From contig JAIYEG010000002.1 of assembly GCA_027487075.1 (NCBI GenBank), forward strand, positions 79,202 to 143,201: 64,000 nucleotides of DNA. The letters run 5' to 3'. The notes beneath the pieces were generated by a model. It ran no database searches. It was not told where the DNA came from and was given only the letters and a program-made list of their open reading frames with translations. Positions 2,826 through 56,809 of the stretch are shown here, piece by piece. Position numbers and translations under genes: made by a program. Source of the stretch: a bacterium (GTDB lineage Bacteria; Patescibacteriota; Minisyncoccia; Phycocordibacterales; CALRBL01). How positions within the stretch are numbered: the first letter of the stretch is position 1; the number at the start of each line of letters is the position of its first letter.

Positions 2826-2844
2826 TTTTGTGGTATTGTGTGGC

Positions 2845-3190
2845 TCTGCGCCAGACAATCGCTCTCGCTTGCGAGGGAGGAAAGTCCGAACACAGCCAGC
2901 TTCGGCTGGAGCACGTAGCGGGTAACGCCCGTCTTGTCATATTCAAAAAGGGGCAAAGAGGTGCGAGCAGTGACGCTTGAAGCGAAAGCAGAGAGCATCC
3001 ATAGCAATGTGGATGAATCCATGTGGTAACACACGGAGTGAAACGGCAAAATCCTTACGTCTGTGCAAGGCCGTGTCCCACGAAGTAATTCGTGGTGAAG
3101 TGCCGCTCGAGGGTGTCAGCGATGACACTCCCAGATAAATGATTGTCACCACAGCAATGTGGCACAGAATTCGGCTTATCGGCGCAGGAC
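2845..3190 (+). ncRNA. rnpB: RNase P RNA (bacterial type A-like)
   Basis: Conserved blocks in native order: gggaggaaagtccg (CR-I GGAGGAAAGTCCGGGC), ggtaacgcc, ggagtgaaacgg, acagaattcggcttatcgg (ACAGAANCCGGCTTA). P1 pairs ctgcgcc (2846-2852) with ggcgcag (3181-3187). An extended -10 tgGTATTGT sits just upstream. The ORFs called across this region are spurious. Confidence 0.85.
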
Positions 3191-3197
3191 ATACATG

Positions 3198-7695: not shown

Positions 7696-8907
7696 ATGAC
7701 CGAAACGTTAGGTGAAGTATTCGGAGACCTTCTCGTTCAAACGCTCTATGCGTTGTACGTGCTTCTCATTGTGTTTGTACCGATCATCCTCGGCTACATC
7801 TTTTTTAATGTGTGGGTGAAGTATGCACGGGCAAAATTCATATCTGAGCAGTCACACATTCTTCTTGAGTTCAAGCTTCCCAAAGAAATCACTAAATCTC
7901 CCGTTGCAATGGAGATTTTTATCAATGCACTGAGCCAAACTGGGGGCGAAGGAAATTGGTTTGATAGATATGTAAAGGGTGGTATGCGACCGTGGTTCTC
8001 ACTCGAACTCATCTCTCTTGAAGGACAGGTGAAGTTTTTGGTGTGGACACGTAAAGGCTTCAAGAAAAATATTGAGACCCAGCTTTACAGTCAGTATCCC
8101 GATGTTGAGGTGACCGAAGTTCCTGACTATACCGAAAGTATTTCATATGATCCATCAACAAATGAGGTGTGGGGCTGTCAGTTTGTTAAAACAAAAGAAA
8201 GTTTTTATCCAATCAAGACCTACGTTGACTACGGACTCGACAAGGATCCGAAAGAAGAGGTGAAGATAGACCCTATTACTCCCGTGATTGAGCTTCTGGG
8301 CTCACTAGGAACTGGCGAGCAGATGTGGATCCAGATCCTCATTCGTGCACACAAGGATGAATTCGCAAAGCCGGGAACATGGTTTGAAAAAACCGACTGG
8401 AAATATTTTGCGAAGGAGGAAGTAAAGAAAAAATTGAAGCGAGACAAGGGAGAGGGAGAGTCACAGGATCGTCTCACTAAAGGAGAGCAGAAGGCGGTAG
8501 AGGCGATCGAGAAGAGTATTGCAAAGATTCCATTCGATTGTGGTATTCGAGCAGTCTATATTGCTGATAAAGATACATTCAATAAGGCAAATGTCGGAGG
8601 ACTTACCGGATCATTCAAGCAATTTAGTGCACCAGATCTTAATGGCTTCAAGCCAGACAAGACCACATCGTTTGATTTCCCATGGCAAGATATTTTTGGC
8701 ACTAAACTCAAAGAAAAGAAGGAGAAAATCGTAAAATCATACAAAGCACGTGCATTCTTCAAGCCTTTATATCAAGGAAAACATTTCATTATGAATGCCG
8801 AAGAGTTGGTGACAATTTATCATTTCCCAGGACGAGTGTCTCGCACACCGACCTTTACTCGTATTGGATCACGCAAGGGCGATGCTCCATCAAATCTTCC
8901 TATCTAG
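7696..8907 (+). CDS. Membrane-anchored hypothetical protein
   Basis: N-terminal TM segment LLVQTLYALYVLLIVFVPIILGYIFF. No P-loop. It has a start-stop junction with mltG. Confidence 0.5.
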   Translation: MTETLGEVFGDLLVQTLYALYVLLIVFVPIILGYIFFNVWVKYARAKFISEQSHILLEFKLPKEITKSPVAMEIFINALSQTGGEGNWFDRYVKGGMRPWFSLELISLEGQVKFLVWTRKGFKKNIETQLYSQYPDVEVTEVPDYTESISYDPSTNEVWGCQFVKTKESFYPIKTYVDYGLDKDPKEEVKIDPITPVIELLGSLGTGEQMWIQILIRAHKDEFAKPGTWFEKTDWKYFAKEEVKKKLKRDKGEGESQDRLTKGEQKAVEAIEKSIAKIPFDCGIRAVYIADKDTFNKANVGGLTGSFKQFSAPDLNGFKPDKTTSFDFPWQDIFGTKLKEKKEKIVKSYKARAFFKPLYQGKHFIMNAEELVTIYHFPGRVSRTPTFTRIGSRKGDAPSNLPI

Positions 8908-8908
8908 T

Positions 8909-9781
8909 ATGTTACGACGTATCTTTCTTTCAACCGTATGTGCAGTGATGATCGTGGGTGGTGCTTTTACCGTGCGCATGTTGTATCCCGCTGACTTCAC
9001 CGAAAAGCATGTATTCTTAGCACCTGGCACGTTCCCACGCGACATTTCAAACGCGCTTCAAGACTCCGGTGTCGTGCGTTCTGGCTTTATACTCCATGTC
9101 ATTTTGTACGTCACTCGTACTGGTGACAACTTGGTACCAGGAGATTATTTGTTTGAAAAACCTCAAAATGTTTTTACCATAGCACGTCGTATTACTTCTG
9201 GAACATTTGGTGTGGAACAACGAAAGCTGGTGGTACCGGAAGGATCAACAAATCAACAAATTGCAGATATTGCTGCGGAAGCTTTTCCTGATTTTGATAA
9301 AACATTATTTATGAAGCAAGCGTCAGGTAAGCAAGGATATCTTTTTCCTGACACATACTTCCTTCTTTCAACATCAACAGAAGAAGTAATTGAAAAAATG
9401 ACTGATCGTTTTAATTTTCAAGTACGCATGCTCCAAGCTGAAGCACTCAATGAAGGTAGAAATTGGAACGATGTAGTAATACTCGCATCCATCTTGGAAG
9501 AGGAGGCAGATACCCTCGAAGATTTTAAATTAGTTTCTGGTATCTTACAAAAGCGACAAAGCATCGGCATGCCACTTCAAGTTGATGTTGCGAGAGAGAC
9601 ATACGAGCGTCTTGGTTTGCCTGACCAACCACTTTCAAACCCTGGTCTTGCCACCCTTGATGCGGTACTTCATCCTACGCCCAGCAACTTTCTTTATTAC
9701 TTGACGGGTAAGGACGGTCTCATGCATTATGCGGTCACCTATGAAGAACACAAGCAGAACATCGATCGATACCTCCGCTAA
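8909..9781 (+). CDS. mltG: Endolytic murein transglycosylase MltG (YceG family)
   Basis: N-terminal TM, then ...ETYERLGLPDQPLSNPGLATLDAVLHPTPSNFLYYL, which is YceG-like. The ORF-track start at 8864 overlaps the upstream gene. The ATG at 8909 directly follows the upstream TAG. Confidence 0.8.
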   Translation: MLRRIFLSTVCAVMIVGGAFTVRMLYPADFTEKHVFLAPGTFPRDISNALQDSGVVRSGFILHVILYVTRTGDNLVPGDYLFEKPQNVFTIARRITSGTFGVEQRKLVVPEGSTNQQIADIAAEAFPDFDKTLFMKQASGKQGYLFPDTYFLLSTSTEEVIEKMTDRFNFQVRMLQAEALNEGRNWNDVVILASILEEEADTLEDFKLVSGILQKRQSIGMPLQVDVARETYERLGLPDQPLSNPGLATLDAVLHPTPSNFLYYLTGKDGLMHYAVTYEEHKQNIDRYLR

Positions 9782-35397: not shown

Positions 35398-36480
35398 ATG
35401 AAGCTTTTTTCTAAAAGAAACAAACCAATATCAAATCATGGATTTGCTTATAGACCGAATAGATTTCATGAAGTTAGCACTATTGGCAACAGATACAGAC
35501 TAGTTTCTAAAGAAACTAGGAATAGAATGGTTTCTGAAATAAAGTTCTTAACATCTAGTGATGATTTTCTAGAGTGGTTTATTTTATTTGAAAATGAAGA
35601 TAAAGGAAAAATTTTTTTTGATAAAAATAAAATTGATAAATTTTCATTATCTGAATTAGGTTACAAAATGTCTGATTTTTTCGATTTTGAAGATTTTGCA
35701 ATGTTAAAACAACGACAAAAACCTGATGATCCCGAAACAGAGTATTTAGACGATTACAAACTTTTTGATATAGCGGAAATTACAATACTATTTTCATTGG
35801 ATAATAAAAGAAGTGCAGTTATAGATAGATTCAATTCTATATTCATTGAAGAGGACACTGATTTTCAAATAATAGAACATCTTATCACCCGTAAATCTGG
35901 TGACAGTATAAAAACATTGCTAAATTTGTTAAAAGACGAAAATTTAAAAAAGAAATTAAAAATGTTTTTTGAATCGTACGATAACTACGATTTTATTAAT
36001 TCTGCTAAAACATCGGCTGATATTCTTAATATTATATTTTCGGATTATATAAAAAATGAGAAATCAAAAAAGATTTCTGAATTATGTAACAAATTAGCTG
36101 ATAAGATTGTAGTGTCAGATACCAAAGGAGATAAGAGAAAAAGATTCCTTGAGTACATGAACGATTTACTTAAGTTATCTAAAAACTTAAGTAATGATAT
36201 CTATGATGTTCGTCATACTGAAAAATCAACAATAATACTTTCTAATGAAAATATCTATAAGTTAATTTCGAATCAAAACATATCTTTAGTTGAGCTAGTA
36301 TTAACCACATTGAAAGATGACTATGTTCTTGGAGATAACTGGGAAAAAATTAAAGACGATTACATTACGAAATATAATATTAATAAATTATCAAGACAAG
36401 TAATTAAAAAGAGAGTTATTCCTACAATTTTAAAAAGCAACGTGGATGACGAGATCGATCCGGATGACATTCCATTTTAA
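35398..36480 (+). CDS. Hypothetical protein, extremely AT-rich, start-stop coupled to tyrS
   Basis: Its ATG directly abuts the tyrS TAA. 360 aa, Lys/Asp/Phe/Ile-rich, no motif recognised. Composition is sharply different from tyrS and ABC-F. Confidence 0.55.
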   Translation: MKLFSKRNKPISNHGFAYRPNRFHEVSTIGNRYRLVSKETRNRMVSEIKFLTSSDDFLEWFILFENEDKGKIFFDKNKIDKFSLSELGYKMSDFFDFEDFAMLKQRQKPDDPETEYLDDYKLFDIAEITILFSLDNKRSAVIDRFNSIFIEEDTDFQIIEHLITRKSGDSIKTLLNLLKDENLKKKLKMFFESYDNYDFINSAKTSADILNIIFSDYIKNEKSKKISELCNKLADKIVVSDTKGDKRKRFLEYMNDLLKLSKNLSNDIYDVRHTEKSTIILSNENIYKLISNQNISLVELVLTTLKDDYVLGDNWEKIKDDYITKYNINKLSRQVIKKRVIPTILKSNVDDEIDPDDIPF

Positions 36481-54304: not shown

Positions 54305-54526
54305 ATGAAAGCTTTTGGCGCACACATACAACCCACCCAGCAAGTCATCGATATCCAGGAAGAGAAGCAGATCGAGAAGGAAGCGCAGGGACTCGTCGAG
54401 CTTCATGACTTCATTAAAGCGCACCCTGATGCGCCCGTAAAAGAGATAGCGAAGTTTATGCCGCCGGTAGATTCTCGTGCGGTGAACAAAGCAATTCAAC
54501 TCATTGCACTGCGGGATAAAAAATAA
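54305..54526 (+). CDS. Small hypothetical protein
   Basis: 73-aa ORF after murG. Confidence 0.35.
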   Translation: MKAFGAHIQPTQQVIDIQEEKQIEKEAQGLVELHDFIKAHPDAPVKEIAKFMPPVDSRAVNKAIQLIALRDKK

Positions 54527-54582
54527 CCTCCCCAGTTCCACGATGGGAAAAGGGGAGGGGTAGAGTTTGTCGAGCGCTTGTT

Positions 54583-55437
54583 TTACGTCACAACAAACTC
54601 CTGCTCGAGTTCAGGCTCAGGCAATTTCGCCAGACCAGCGCGCTGTGCCGCATCAGCATGATGATTGAGCGATTTGTCGGTTTCGCCCAGCGCGTGCGGT
54701 AAACCACGCGCAAGGGATTCGATGGCGAGGAGCATGTGCGAGACAGGCACTTCCGTCTCTGTCACCACCTGATCCGGCGTTGGTGCCGGAAACACGACCA
54801 TCATTTTCGGATCACCCTGACCGGGTAAAGCGGGAAGATAGTGGTTGCATCCACAACCGTGAAGGGGAATAGTCCCCGTATGACGGTTGATGACACTCAG
54901 GATGTGAAGATACAGCGACGTTGCGGGAGGCAACCCATGCCACACAGCGTCAATCGTCTCCCAGGGCAGCCCCTCGGGAAGATGAGGGGCGAGCTCAGGA
55001 AGACGTTCGGCCTGGTGGAGATTTGGCCTCGTCACCATGAACATGTAGCCGCCGTAGAGAGCCCACGGCAAGCGCATGCCATAAAGATCGAAGAGCTCAA
55101 GCATCGCCACTCGCATCCCGTCACGAATGCGAATTGCGACGGTGCCCGCAGTAGACGATGCGCGAAACTCATCGATCTTGAGCTCGAATGCTTTACGATC
55201 GGTCGGCATGTAGCCCTCACACAGGCGCAAGGCTGAATTCAGACACCGAACCTTGATCTTTTTTGAAACCGCAGGGTCATCCGCATACTGACTCGCCGAT
55301 ACATGATCGACGAATGCCGCGAACTTCGAAGCGATGTCGGGGCTGCCGGCATCATTCAACCTCGACACCGCAGTGCCAAGGGCATTTTTTGCATTACACA
55401 AAGTGCACATAGATACATAAGGAACACCCATTCTCAC
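54583..55437 (-). CDS. GC-rich hypothetical protein with a CxC motif (possible metal-binding partner of the upstream ATPase)
   Basis: 284 aa, HGCGCNHY, Pro/Leu/Gly-rich. Visibly more GC-rich than its neighbours. A hairpin plus T-run terminator lies downstream on the minus strand (54530-54561). Confidence 0.5.
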   Translation of the reverse strand: MRMGVPYVSMCTLCNAKNALGTAVSRLNDAGSPDIASKFAAFVDHVSASQYADDPAVSKKIKVRCLNSALRLCEGYMPTDRKAFELKIDEFRASSTAGTVAIRIRDGMRVAMLELFDLYGMRLPWALYGGYMFMVTRPNLHQAERLPELAPHLPEGLPWETIDAVWHGLPPATSLYLHILSVINRHTGTIPLHGCGCNHYLPALPGQGDPKMMVVFPAPTPDQVVTETEVPVSHMLLAIESLARGLPHALGETDKSLNHHADAAQRAGLAKLPEPELEQEFVVT

Positions 55438-55503
55438 TGGCCATGAGAACAGTTCGTTTGTTTCAAGTTGAGCGGCCAGTTATAAATTCGGAGTAACCCG
55501 AGC

Positions 55504-56325
55504 CTAAGACTGAACGCCCAAATCGTGCTTGCGCTTCCATTCTTCTAAACGATGAATCGTTGAAGTGTGTGGTATATGCTTTTGGATATGAGAAAGCACG
55601 GCATCACACATGCTCTTATTCTTCTCCATAACATTTTCATATTCATATGTTGCAAAAGCGGGATCAAATAAGAATGCACCTATAGGATCGACAGACATGT
55701 TAACATTCGTGATATCTACACACTTATTCAGAACAACAAAAAAAGGAATTCCATATGCATCAGCAATACGCTTTGTACTTTCCATTACTGCAATACTGTT
55801 TTTTGTTTGCTCTACAACACAGATGATCGCATCGACACCTAGATACAACCCATAATTCAACATGTCAGTGCCTGCAACTGAATCGATAATCACCATTTCA
55901 TCTGAACGAAGGTGTAAGTAAGGGAGGTAAAATTTTATTGACTTTGCATATGCATGACTGCAGCGTCCGCTATACATAGTTTCTTCATCATGATCTCCAA
56001 GTACCATAAGTTGCAAATTGTCTGAAACCTTTTTAGCGTAGGTGTTCATAAAAGTATCATCGAATGTAAATGACTCTTTTTTATGAAGTGCAAGAATATC
56101 AAATGCATTTTGAGACAGATCAATACCAAAGTGGTGGTATATATCTTTTTCCGCACCCTTAAGAAAAGGGGATGAAGGCTCGATTCCAAGATTGTGCGCA
56201 AGGTCCATATTGTAATCCGCATCAATAGCCAACGTAGGTAGACCCGAACGCGCAGCATGACACGCAAAAAGCCATGAAATCGATGACTTACCGCTCCCAC
56301 CTTTTCCTACAATTGCAATTCTCAT
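55504..56325 (-). CDS. CooC/MinD-superfamily P-loop ATPase
   Basis: Deviant Walker A IAIVGKGGSGKSS, and LAIDADYNMDLAHNLGIEP resembles the CooC IDADPDANL. The ORF-track start is a TTG at 56334. The in-frame ATG at 56325 is preferred. Confidence 0.75.
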   Translation of the reverse strand: MRIAIVGKGGSGKSSISWLFACHAARSGLPTLAIDADYNMDLAHNLGIEPSSPFLKGAEKDIYHHFGIDLSQNAFDILALHKKESFTFDDTFMNTYAKKVSDNLQLMVLGDHDEETMYSGRCSHAYAKSIKFYLPYLHLRSDEMVIIDSVAGTDMLNYGLYLGVDAIICVVEQTKNSIAVMESTKRIADAYGIPFFVVLNKCVDITNVNMSVDPIGAFLFDPAFATYEYENVMEKNKSMCDAVLSHIQKHIPHTSTIHRLEEWKRKHDLGVQS

Positions 56326-56329
56326 ATAA

Positions 56330-56390
56330 TGCAAATTATTTGCAATAAGTATTGTAACATATAAGTTATTTAATGCAAACTATTCGCATT
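56330..56390 (-). promoter_or_regulatory. Promoter with two copies of a palindromic operator (ATGCAAAyTATTyGCA)
   Basis: TGCAAATTATTTGCA (56330-56344, perfect palindrome abutting the start codon) and AATGCAAACTATTCGCATT (56372-56390). On the minus strand TTGCAT-16-TACAAT is -35/-10-like, with operator 2 over the -35 and operator 1 in the 5'UTR. Confidence 0.5.
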
Positions 56391-56404
56391 AGTTTATAAA
56401 AAGG

Positions 56405-56448
56405 AATCCCCTCGAATCTTTGCCTTACAGCTAGGATTCGAGGGGATT
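56405..56448 (-). terminator. Strong intrinsic terminator (14-16-bp stem) for the upstream minus-strand gene
   Basis: AATCCCCTCGAATC...GATTCGAGGGGATT with a 12-nt loop. The minus strand continues ccttttta. Confidence 0.65.
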
Positions 56449-56467
56449 GCGGAGGGAAGCAGGGAAG

Positions 56468-56809
56468 CTAGACCGACTCAGAAAGACCGAGCACCTGGTC
56501 AAAAACATCCTGGCTGAATTCCGCTCCAGCGCGCTTTTGAACGAGGGAGCGGATCTCACTGACGATACCGGCGGAATCAAGGACTCCGGCAGTCTTTTTC
56601 TTGAGCAGGTTCTGAAGATCGATCGGCTCAAGCCAATGCATCACCATGAGGGTGAGGCAGGCATGCAGTAGAGCGTATTGCTTTTCTGCACCGAACAAAC
56701 GGAGAAGGATTCCTGCGAGAGTATTCGCGGATGGTTGTTGCGGCTCCACCTTAGAAGGTGTAGCCGTAGAGCTTGCAGGACTGCTAAAAAATCTGCGCAG
56801 TATTTGCAT
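56468..56809 (-). CDS. Hypothetical protein (113 aa)
   Basis: The ORF ends 20 nt before the strong terminator. No motif. Confidence 0.35.
   Translation of the reverse strand: MQILRRFFSSPASSTATPSKVEPQQPSANTLAGILLRLFGAEKQYALLHACLTLMVMHWLEPIDLQNLLKKKTAGVLDSAGIVSEIRSLVQKRAGAEFSQDVFDQVLGLSESV

Follow-up and report, generated by a model that had tools for sequence, protein, structure and literature searches.

The ATPase CooC1 holds Zn or Ni at its dimer interface via Cys112 and Cys114 (PMC6006190). Nur, a nickel regulator of the Fur family, has a footprint-derived 6-5-6 box, tTGCaa-N5-ttGCAA (PMC2691836), and clusters of COG0523 genes, zur and zinc transporter genes under the control of Zur have been documented (PMC2770081). 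Here we analyzed an operon to which these are the closest described systems, located in a 64-kb stretch of DNA (the window; contig JAIYEG010000002.1, positions 79,202 to 143,201) from a bacterium of the Patescibacteriota. The operon consists of two minus-strand open reading frames (ORFs), 56334-55504 for a P-loop ATPase and then 55437-54583 for a protein carrying HGCGCNHY, referred to as the partner. An earlier interpretation made from the letters alone (the sequence-only reading) had described such a pair, and both ORFs and their motifs were present. We consider it probable, at roughly 0.6, that this operon is a metal-limitation module repressed by a Fur-family regulator encoded outside the window, the metal most likely being zinc.

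Two copies of a palindrome, said in the sequence-only reading to stand 44 bp apart in a repressor-like layout, were found upstream of the ATPase gene. The distal box, TGCAAACTATTCGCA, lies at 56374-56388 and is one mismatch away from TGCAA-N5-TTGCA, and the proximal box, TGCAAATTATTTGCA, lies at 56330-56344, matches this core exactly and is part of a 10-1-10 palindrome (no strand was assigned to either box). Both sit in a 24-nt direct repeat with a spacing of 44 nt. A sigma70-type promoter was predicted by a consensus scan only on the minus strand at 56351-56379 (TTTGCA-17-TACAAT with an upstream TG, 9 of 12 matches); if the -35 element is read as TTGCAT instead, the spacer is 16 nt. The distal box and the predicted -35 element overlap, and the proximal box spans from approximately the predicted +1 to 4 nt before the ATPase ATG, which agrees with the layout proposed. 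Because the proximal box fills this interval, the predicted 5' leader is short (~20 nt) and carries no Shine-Dalgarno sequence.

To place the boxes in other genomes, we used comparison loci (designated L) that had been fetched for encoding the partner or the ATPase, and counted boxes over the window and the non-redundant loci (221 kb). The exact core TGCAA-N5-TTGCA occurred 9 times, where 0.48 were expected and 200 simulations never gave more than 3. All nine stood immediately ahead of the module's first gene, in L002, L003, L004, L007, L010, L013, L020 (two copies) and the window, and none was found elsewhere in the 221 kb; each independent locus of the orthologous module for which upstream DNA was available had an exact box. 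Boxes with one mismatch took this place in L018, L016 (two copies spaced 48 bp apart), L021 and L023. A second box in L021, with two mismatches, is 4 nt before the ATG and matches the window layout; the arrangement of box, 4 nt and ATG was also seen in L003 and L010, where it precedes fur. Distal-type boxes overlapping TTGCAT at -35 were also found in L002 and L004, and a box was present upstream of partner homologs without any ATPase. The palindromes therefore recur at orthologous promoters in other genomes, a point on which the sequence-only reading had staked its case. From its sequence, the core TGCAA-N5-TTGCA equals the Nur 6-5-6 box, and the boxes are putative operators of the Fur family (Nur/Zur-type), conserved across many genomes.

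The window alone would agree with the view that the palindromes are random AT-rich promoter sequence and the two genes merely adjacent, since its motif count does not exceed chance. The palindrome motif as first proposed had 3 matches against 0.89 expected, with as many in 9 of 100 shuffles, and the core with one mismatch allowed had 2 matches against 3.9 expected. The suggestion that the palindrome could define a regulon failed within the window, where no copies beyond the two operon boxes were found. The significance of the boxes comes from their position and their conservation across genomes and not from the window count. Chance is already contradicted by the cross-genome data, which include the nine exact boxes at orthologous promoters, a gene pair kept from bacteria of the candidate phyla radiation (CPR) to a DPANN archaeon, and a conserved RNA element in the spacer between the genes; we give it almost no credence.

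Fur genes (PF01475) were located within the module or facing it in five lineages. In L003 and the L010 group, fur was the first gene of a fur-ATPase-partner operon, and the box 4 nt before the fur ATG implies autoregulation. A Fur gene was directly upstream of a distant partner homolog in L013/L014, and a divergent one faced the ATPase gene in L018, L021 and L023. The associated regulators were short and divergent (111-162 aa), and the best, weak NCBIfam hits of six of them were mixed among Fur, PerR and Zur.

Additional arrangements were observed around these regulators. In L010, two inverted IS30-like transposase genes (48-1064 and 7962-8980; HTH_38/rve), 80% identical, bracket a 7-kb segment that contains fur-ATPase-partner, a hint that the module may be mobile as a whole. 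In L021 (3341-6267) and L023 (2948-6366), the ATPase gene is opposite a divergent pair of fur and YibE/F (a PF07907 membrane protein), and a YibE/F gene also occurs near the partner gene in L008 (3398-4636). YibE/F may be an overlooked metal transporter; a literature search on its function returned nothing useful.

The ATPase gene (55504-56325, minus strand, 273 aa) most plausibly starts at ATG 56325, from which the product begins MRIAIVGKGGSGKSS and holds IDADYNMDL. The Walker A motif is deviant (GKGGSGKSS), the Walker B motif reads DSVAG, and DADYNMD is present as well. Pfam yielded only a weak CbiA match. A profile of 120 ATPase homologs matched CooC1 at 6e-21, followed by MinD at 1.7e-5, and CooC1 was the closest solved relative. 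Residues 1-205 aligned with CooC1 (3KJE), an alignment called full-length, in which C-S-H stands opposite the C-Y-C of CooC1; Cys122-Ser-His124 thus falls at the position of Cys112-x-Cys114. Both C122 and H124 were invariant in 120/120 homologs, and all homologs with a named source came from CPR bacteria and DPANN archaea. The full-length alignment and the family profile uphold the assignment to a CooC-like metallochaperone family made in the sequence-only reading.

Judged by its sequence, the ATPase would act like CooC yet lacks two of its defining features. The MRP/MinD-class P-loop with GKGGxGK[ST] is present, the strict Cys-x-Cys is replaced by Cys122-Ser-His124, and no Pfam family of the carbon monoxide dehydrogenase (CODH) type was found among the neighbors in 14 inspected loci. 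Since there is no CODH context, the ATPase should not be named CooC. The CxC noticed in the partner does not correspond to that of CooC; the ATPase itself carries Cys-x-His at the CooC site.

A deviant Walker A motif together with weak CbiA, ParA and MinD model hits could also mark a ParA-like partition or positioning system, in which the ATPase is a small ParA, the palindromes serve as centromere or operator, and the partner is an autoregulating ParB-like adaptor; repeated palindromes upstream of the ATPase gene resemble those of type Ib par loci. The ParA/MinD hits, however, span the P-loop only (residues 1-50), whereas CooC1 aligns full-length. The partner is a His/Cys protein without a helix-turn-helix (HTH), ribbon-helix-helix or ParB domain, the box co-occurs with Fur genes and also precedes partner homologs without an ATPase, and the module occupies a chromosomal site beside mraY-ftsW-murG, its place differing in each genome. 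We regard partition as very improbable.

The partner gene (54583-55410, minus strand) encodes a protein of an undescribed family with 275 aa from ATG 55410. Its ORF extends back to GTG 55437, and the NCBI annotation places the start at ATG 55431 (282 aa), inside a conserved hairpin; the MC.. start matching ATG 55410 was used by 16 of 16 orthologs. The partner had 17 orthologs with 45-59% identity, and an exhaustive hidden Markov model search retrieved 40 partner-family cluster representatives among 1.84 billion. No Pfam or NCBIfam match was obtained for the partner, nor for 39 family members, a sequence profile search of the PDB with the partner yielded only noise, and no PDB fold match was found. 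The protein is predicted to be mostly helical with one short beta-hairpin, and it has an N-terminal CxxC. Residues R135, D161, H165, H191, C193 and C195 were invariant across 39 divergent members and H232 nearly so, with D-x3-H on one helix and H-x-C-x-C on the hairpin in the predicted structure. These invariant residues suggest a metal site, which may be catalytic.

The partner gene follows the ATPase gene in eight bacterial lineages, and a distant member (2e-17) follows the ATPase gene in L022, from the Iainarchaeum genome of a DPANN archaeon. The sequence-only reading had made its case depend on conservation of the partner and on its presence at related CooC-like loci, and both were observed. 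In L008 (5547-5888) and L009 (481-822), the gene called ahead of the partner gene covers only the last, C-terminal third of the ATPase (hmmsearch 1.6e-23). Neither promoter nor box is left there, but the intergenic RNA element and the partner gene are intact. The '113-aa protein' of L008 was therefore rejected as a separate gene, being this C-terminal ATPase remnant. A small protein was encoded beside the module in L002 (6631-6918, 95 aa) and L004 (8870-9112, 80 aa), with 35% identity (E 7e-9), on opposite sides of the module in these two related genomes.

The partner gene has a GC content of 55.7% (GC at third codon positions, GC3, 0.60) and the ATPase gene 39.2% (GC3 0.34), in a window of 44.8% GC with a gene-to-gene standard deviation of 5%. 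The contrast pointed out in the sequence-only reading is real, but it is not the odd local mosaic it was taken for: a contrast of the same sign and similar size was present in 4 of 4 orthologous pairs measured (genomes of 30-58% GC), which makes it a family trait. Recent horizontal acquisition as its local cause was rejected because the same contrast exists across genomes of this GC range.

A conserved structured RNA was found in the spacer between the two genes (55418-55521, minus strand), consisting of the hairpins P1 and P2 and described by a covariance model. The element is ~100 nt long, with copies at L002:7878-7980, L003:7887-7987, L004:7884-7981, L006:1753-1851, L008:5888-5981, L010:5534-5634 and L012:864-965. 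In the window, UUGGGCG/CGCUCAA closes the long P1 hairpin, whose 5' arm lies inside the last ATPase codons; the closing stem in the conserved fold is UUGGUG/CACYAA, and the window copy shows compensatory changes there. A conserved CUGGCC is located at 55479-55474. P2 of the window, a terminator-like hairpin (55452-55428), carries a GGCCAG loop and runs into GUGUUCCUUAU; in the conserved fold, UUCUUU, an A-rich tract and the partner start codon come after P2.

Among the 22 pairs of P1, 15 had changes on both sides, and P1 was 94.6% paired, compared to at most 53% when the partners were slid. The CUGRCC in P1 is complementary to the GGYCAG loop of P2 and covaries with it (A...U in L010 and L012), which hints at a possible alternative pairing. 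Built without the window, a covariance model recovered the window copy at 55418-55521 with 19.5 bits; apart from the training sequences and the reverse strands of their loci, nothing scored better. Scores on reverse strands were much lower, as expected because the RNA has G-U pairs. The spacer RNA matched no Rfam 15 family, with E <= 1 as the threshold for five loci and E <= 10 for the window. By its structure, the spacer RNA is a candidate attenuator that would tune partner expression, or a riboswitch-like element.

The neighbors of the module in other genomes bear on the metal. In L006, a metagenome-assembled genome of Saccharibacteria, the stop of a COG0523 GTPase gene overlaps the ATPase start; the GTPase carries GCICCTLR and matched NF038288, the ZigA zinc-chaperone model, at 7e-113 versus 4.5e-24 for CobW. 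In L003, the gene of a ZIP transporter (best match ZupT) is divergent from the box-bearing spacer, and in L016 a second fur-ZIP pair, also ZupT-like, follows the partner gene behind two boxes. The clustering with zinc-uptake or COG0523 genes that marks Zur regulons was thus seen in L006, L003 and L016, with neither gene type in the window. The ZIP/ZupT-like and ZigA-type neighbors favor zinc. The idea of a module for metal insertion or maturation that has its own repressor site, raised in the sequence-only reading, gained support from the CooC1 homology, the conserved pair, the Fur-type boxes and the Fur, ZIP and ZigA neighbors.

These neighbors also speak against nickel. A nickel module would combine a Nur-like nickel-sensing repressor, a CooC-type nickel-insertion ATPase, and a nickel enzyme or carrier as the partner, and it would fit the box core, which is identical to the experimentally defined Nur 6-5-6 and unlike the 7-1-7 boxes of Fur, Zur and PerR, as well as the nickel-chaperone role of CooC1, the closest solved relative. 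The neighbors elsewhere are a ZigA-type chaperone and ZupT-like ZIPs, however, and not NikABCDE, NiCoT or CbiMNQO; no known nickel enzyme (CODH, urease or hydrogenase) was encoded in any inspected locus. The Cys4 site of CooC is changed to Cys2His2 in 120/120 family members, and CooC1 itself binds Zn too at this site. We judge nickel to be unlikely.

With Fur and PerR models being the best, weak NCBIfam hits of the associated regulators, the module might instead serve iron, Fe-S clusters or peroxide stress, with Fur/PerR controlling a MinD/Mrp-like iron or Fe-S ATPase and a Cys/His iron protein as the partner. These regulator scores do not discriminate, being far under all subfamily cut-offs. 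The Mrp/NBP35 and NifH relatives of the ATPase do hold Fe-S clusters at the dimer interface, but the profile match to CooC1 was 15 orders of magnitude above that to Mrp or NifH, and a CxxC Fe-S motif is lacking. Fe(II) can be transported by ZIP transporters; the co-operonic COG0523 protein, on the other hand, is ZigA-type. An iron-related role appears doubtful, and about as improbable to us as nickel.

Several findings weigh against the proposed Fur-controlled, zinc-related module. No Fur homolog was detected in the 64-kb window by tblastn with the L003 Fur, so that the nearby regulator gene suggested in the sequence-only reading was not found and the regulator must act in trans here; the fetched flanks of L002 and L004 had no Fur gene either. 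The NCBIfam scores of the six associated Fur proteins were far under every subfamily cut-off, and the box count in the window alone is no higher than chance. The ZigA and ZIP links come from one or two lineages each, the operon start of L006 is lost at the contig end, the box is nearest to that of the nickel regulator Nur, and the canonical metal of CooC is nickel. Partner members in L007, L013 and L020 have no adjacent ATPase and stand alone behind a box, and many ATPase-family members, as in L021 and L023, have small Cys-rich proteins (116 and 142 aa) after them in place of the partner. The ATPase and partner are therefore not obligately coupled, and the two families appear to belong to one regulon, commonly though not always sharing an operon.

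In the zinc-limitation module that we favor, a metallated Fur dimer would bind both TGCAA-N5-TTGCA boxes when the metal is plentiful, one box covering the -35 element and the other the start site and short leader, and would block transcription; when the metal is scarce, the operon would be expressed. By homology, the CooC-type ATPase would dimerize on nucleotide binding with one metal ion at the interface, in a Cys2His2 site formed from the invariant Cys-x-His of each subunit, and ATP hydrolysis would drive metal hand-over. The partner is most likely a client or co-chaperone that receives or donates the metal, as a cytoplasmic protein with a conserved His/Cys/Asp site, and the intergenic RNA hairpin with its terminator-like element probably sets the amount of partner per ATPase.

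The operon has a terminator upstream and a terminator-like hairpin downstream. Downstream, a terminator-like hairpin (54527-54558, minus strand; CCUCCCC...GGGGAGG, then UUAUUUUUU; -19.7 kcal/mol, z = -2.5) closes the operon and faces a convergent 73-aa ORF. Upstream, the inverted repeat I2 (56405-56448, minus strand) is the intrinsic terminator of an orphan ORF (56809-56468), with a perfect 14-bp stem, AAUCCCCUCGAAUC/GAUUCGAGGGGAUU, followed by CCUUUUU; its fold of -27.9 kcal/mol (z = -4.7) was equaled by 0 of 200 shuffles. It separates the operon from the preceding gene, and the insulating terminator described in the sequence-only reading was thereby found, with its perfect stem and T run.

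The operon is flanked in the window by murG and the 73-aa ORF on one side and by the 113-aa orphan ORF and gltX on the other. The 113-aa ORF (56468-56809, minus strand; 52% GC) has no domain and only its self-match among 5.8 billion proteins; it was rejected as a regulator on these grounds and because it has its own strong terminator. The 73-aa ORF (54305-54526, plus strand), after murG and convergent with the partner gene, showed weak similarity to the C-terminal HTH of WhiA (E 0.005-0.01) and was absent beside the module in the other inspected loci, and was likewise rejected as a regulator. Elsewhere in the window, a bacterial class A RNase P RNA was identified at 2843-3194 (plus strand; 119 bits, above the gathering score); no other Rfam family was found in the window, and no tRNA genes in its 64 kb. 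A 360-aa ORF at 35398-36480 (plus strand; 26.5% GC, GC3 0.22) deviated in composition far more than any other and could be of foreign origin.

We found no description in the searchable literature of a CPR CooC-like or Zur module of this kind. We know of no MinD-class zinc chaperone, and to our knowledge nucleotide-dependent zinc chaperones have so far come solely from the COG0523 G3E GTPases. We put forward, only tentatively, that CPR and DPANN organisms use a CooC-derived, MinD-class Cys2His2 ATPase as an allocation chaperone for zinc or another metal, together with a new family of His/Cys metalloproteins, a Fur box of the Nur type, and a new RNA acting in cis to set partner expression. If true, the MinD/CooC-class ATPase would be a second, independent answer to nucleotide-dependent zinc chaperoning, in a family widespread among ultra-small CPR and DPANN organisms, the metal economy of which has barely been studied. 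The module offers a testable marker, ATGCAA-N5-TTGCAT, for the regulon of a Fur-family regulator among uncultivated lineages, gives a rare Pfam-less family with an invariant Asp/His/His/Cys/Cys signature its first functional context, and adds a candidate new cis-regulatory RNA.

Compared to CooC1 (3KJE/3KJI), the nickel-insertion ATPase for the CODH of Carboxydothermus hydrogenoformans, the ATPase shares the MRP/MinD-class SIMIBI (signal recognition particle, MinD and BioD) fold, the deviant Walker A and, at the corresponding position, a metal motif of two residues; the CooC1 motif makes up a tetracoordinate Zn/Ni site that spans the dimer. The ATPase differs in having Cys-x-His and in lacking a nearby CODH, CooT or CooJ; it occurs in CPR/DPANN genomes, is preceded by a Fur-type box and has an unrelated His/Cys protein as its partner. 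The palindrome is that of Nur (6-5-6), and boxes over the -35 element and start site reproduce the usual geometry of repression by Fur-family regulators; boxes upstream of a first-gene fur in L003, L010 and L013 are read as autoregulation, as for other Fur-family operators. Unlike the Nur, Zur and Fur operators, the proximal box of the module takes the place of the Shine-Dalgarno region, and the associated regulators are short and divergent without a subfamily match above the NCBIfam cut-off. Like intrinsic-terminator attenuators and riboswitch platforms, the spacer RNA has a covarying hairpin and a second hairpin with a U-rich tract before the partner start, but no Rfam family matches it, and its place is between two operon genes, not in a 5' leader. 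The Zur-regulated COG0523 chaperones (ZigA, ZagA/YciC, YeiR and Zng1) are the analog that we propose: they are nucleotide-hydrolyzing metallochaperones, metal limitation induces them through a Fur-family repressor, and their genes cluster with zur and those of zinc transporters; L006 has a ZigA-type gene in the same operon. The COG0523 proteins are G3E GTPases with CxCC, whereas the ATPase of this module is of the MinD class with CxH.

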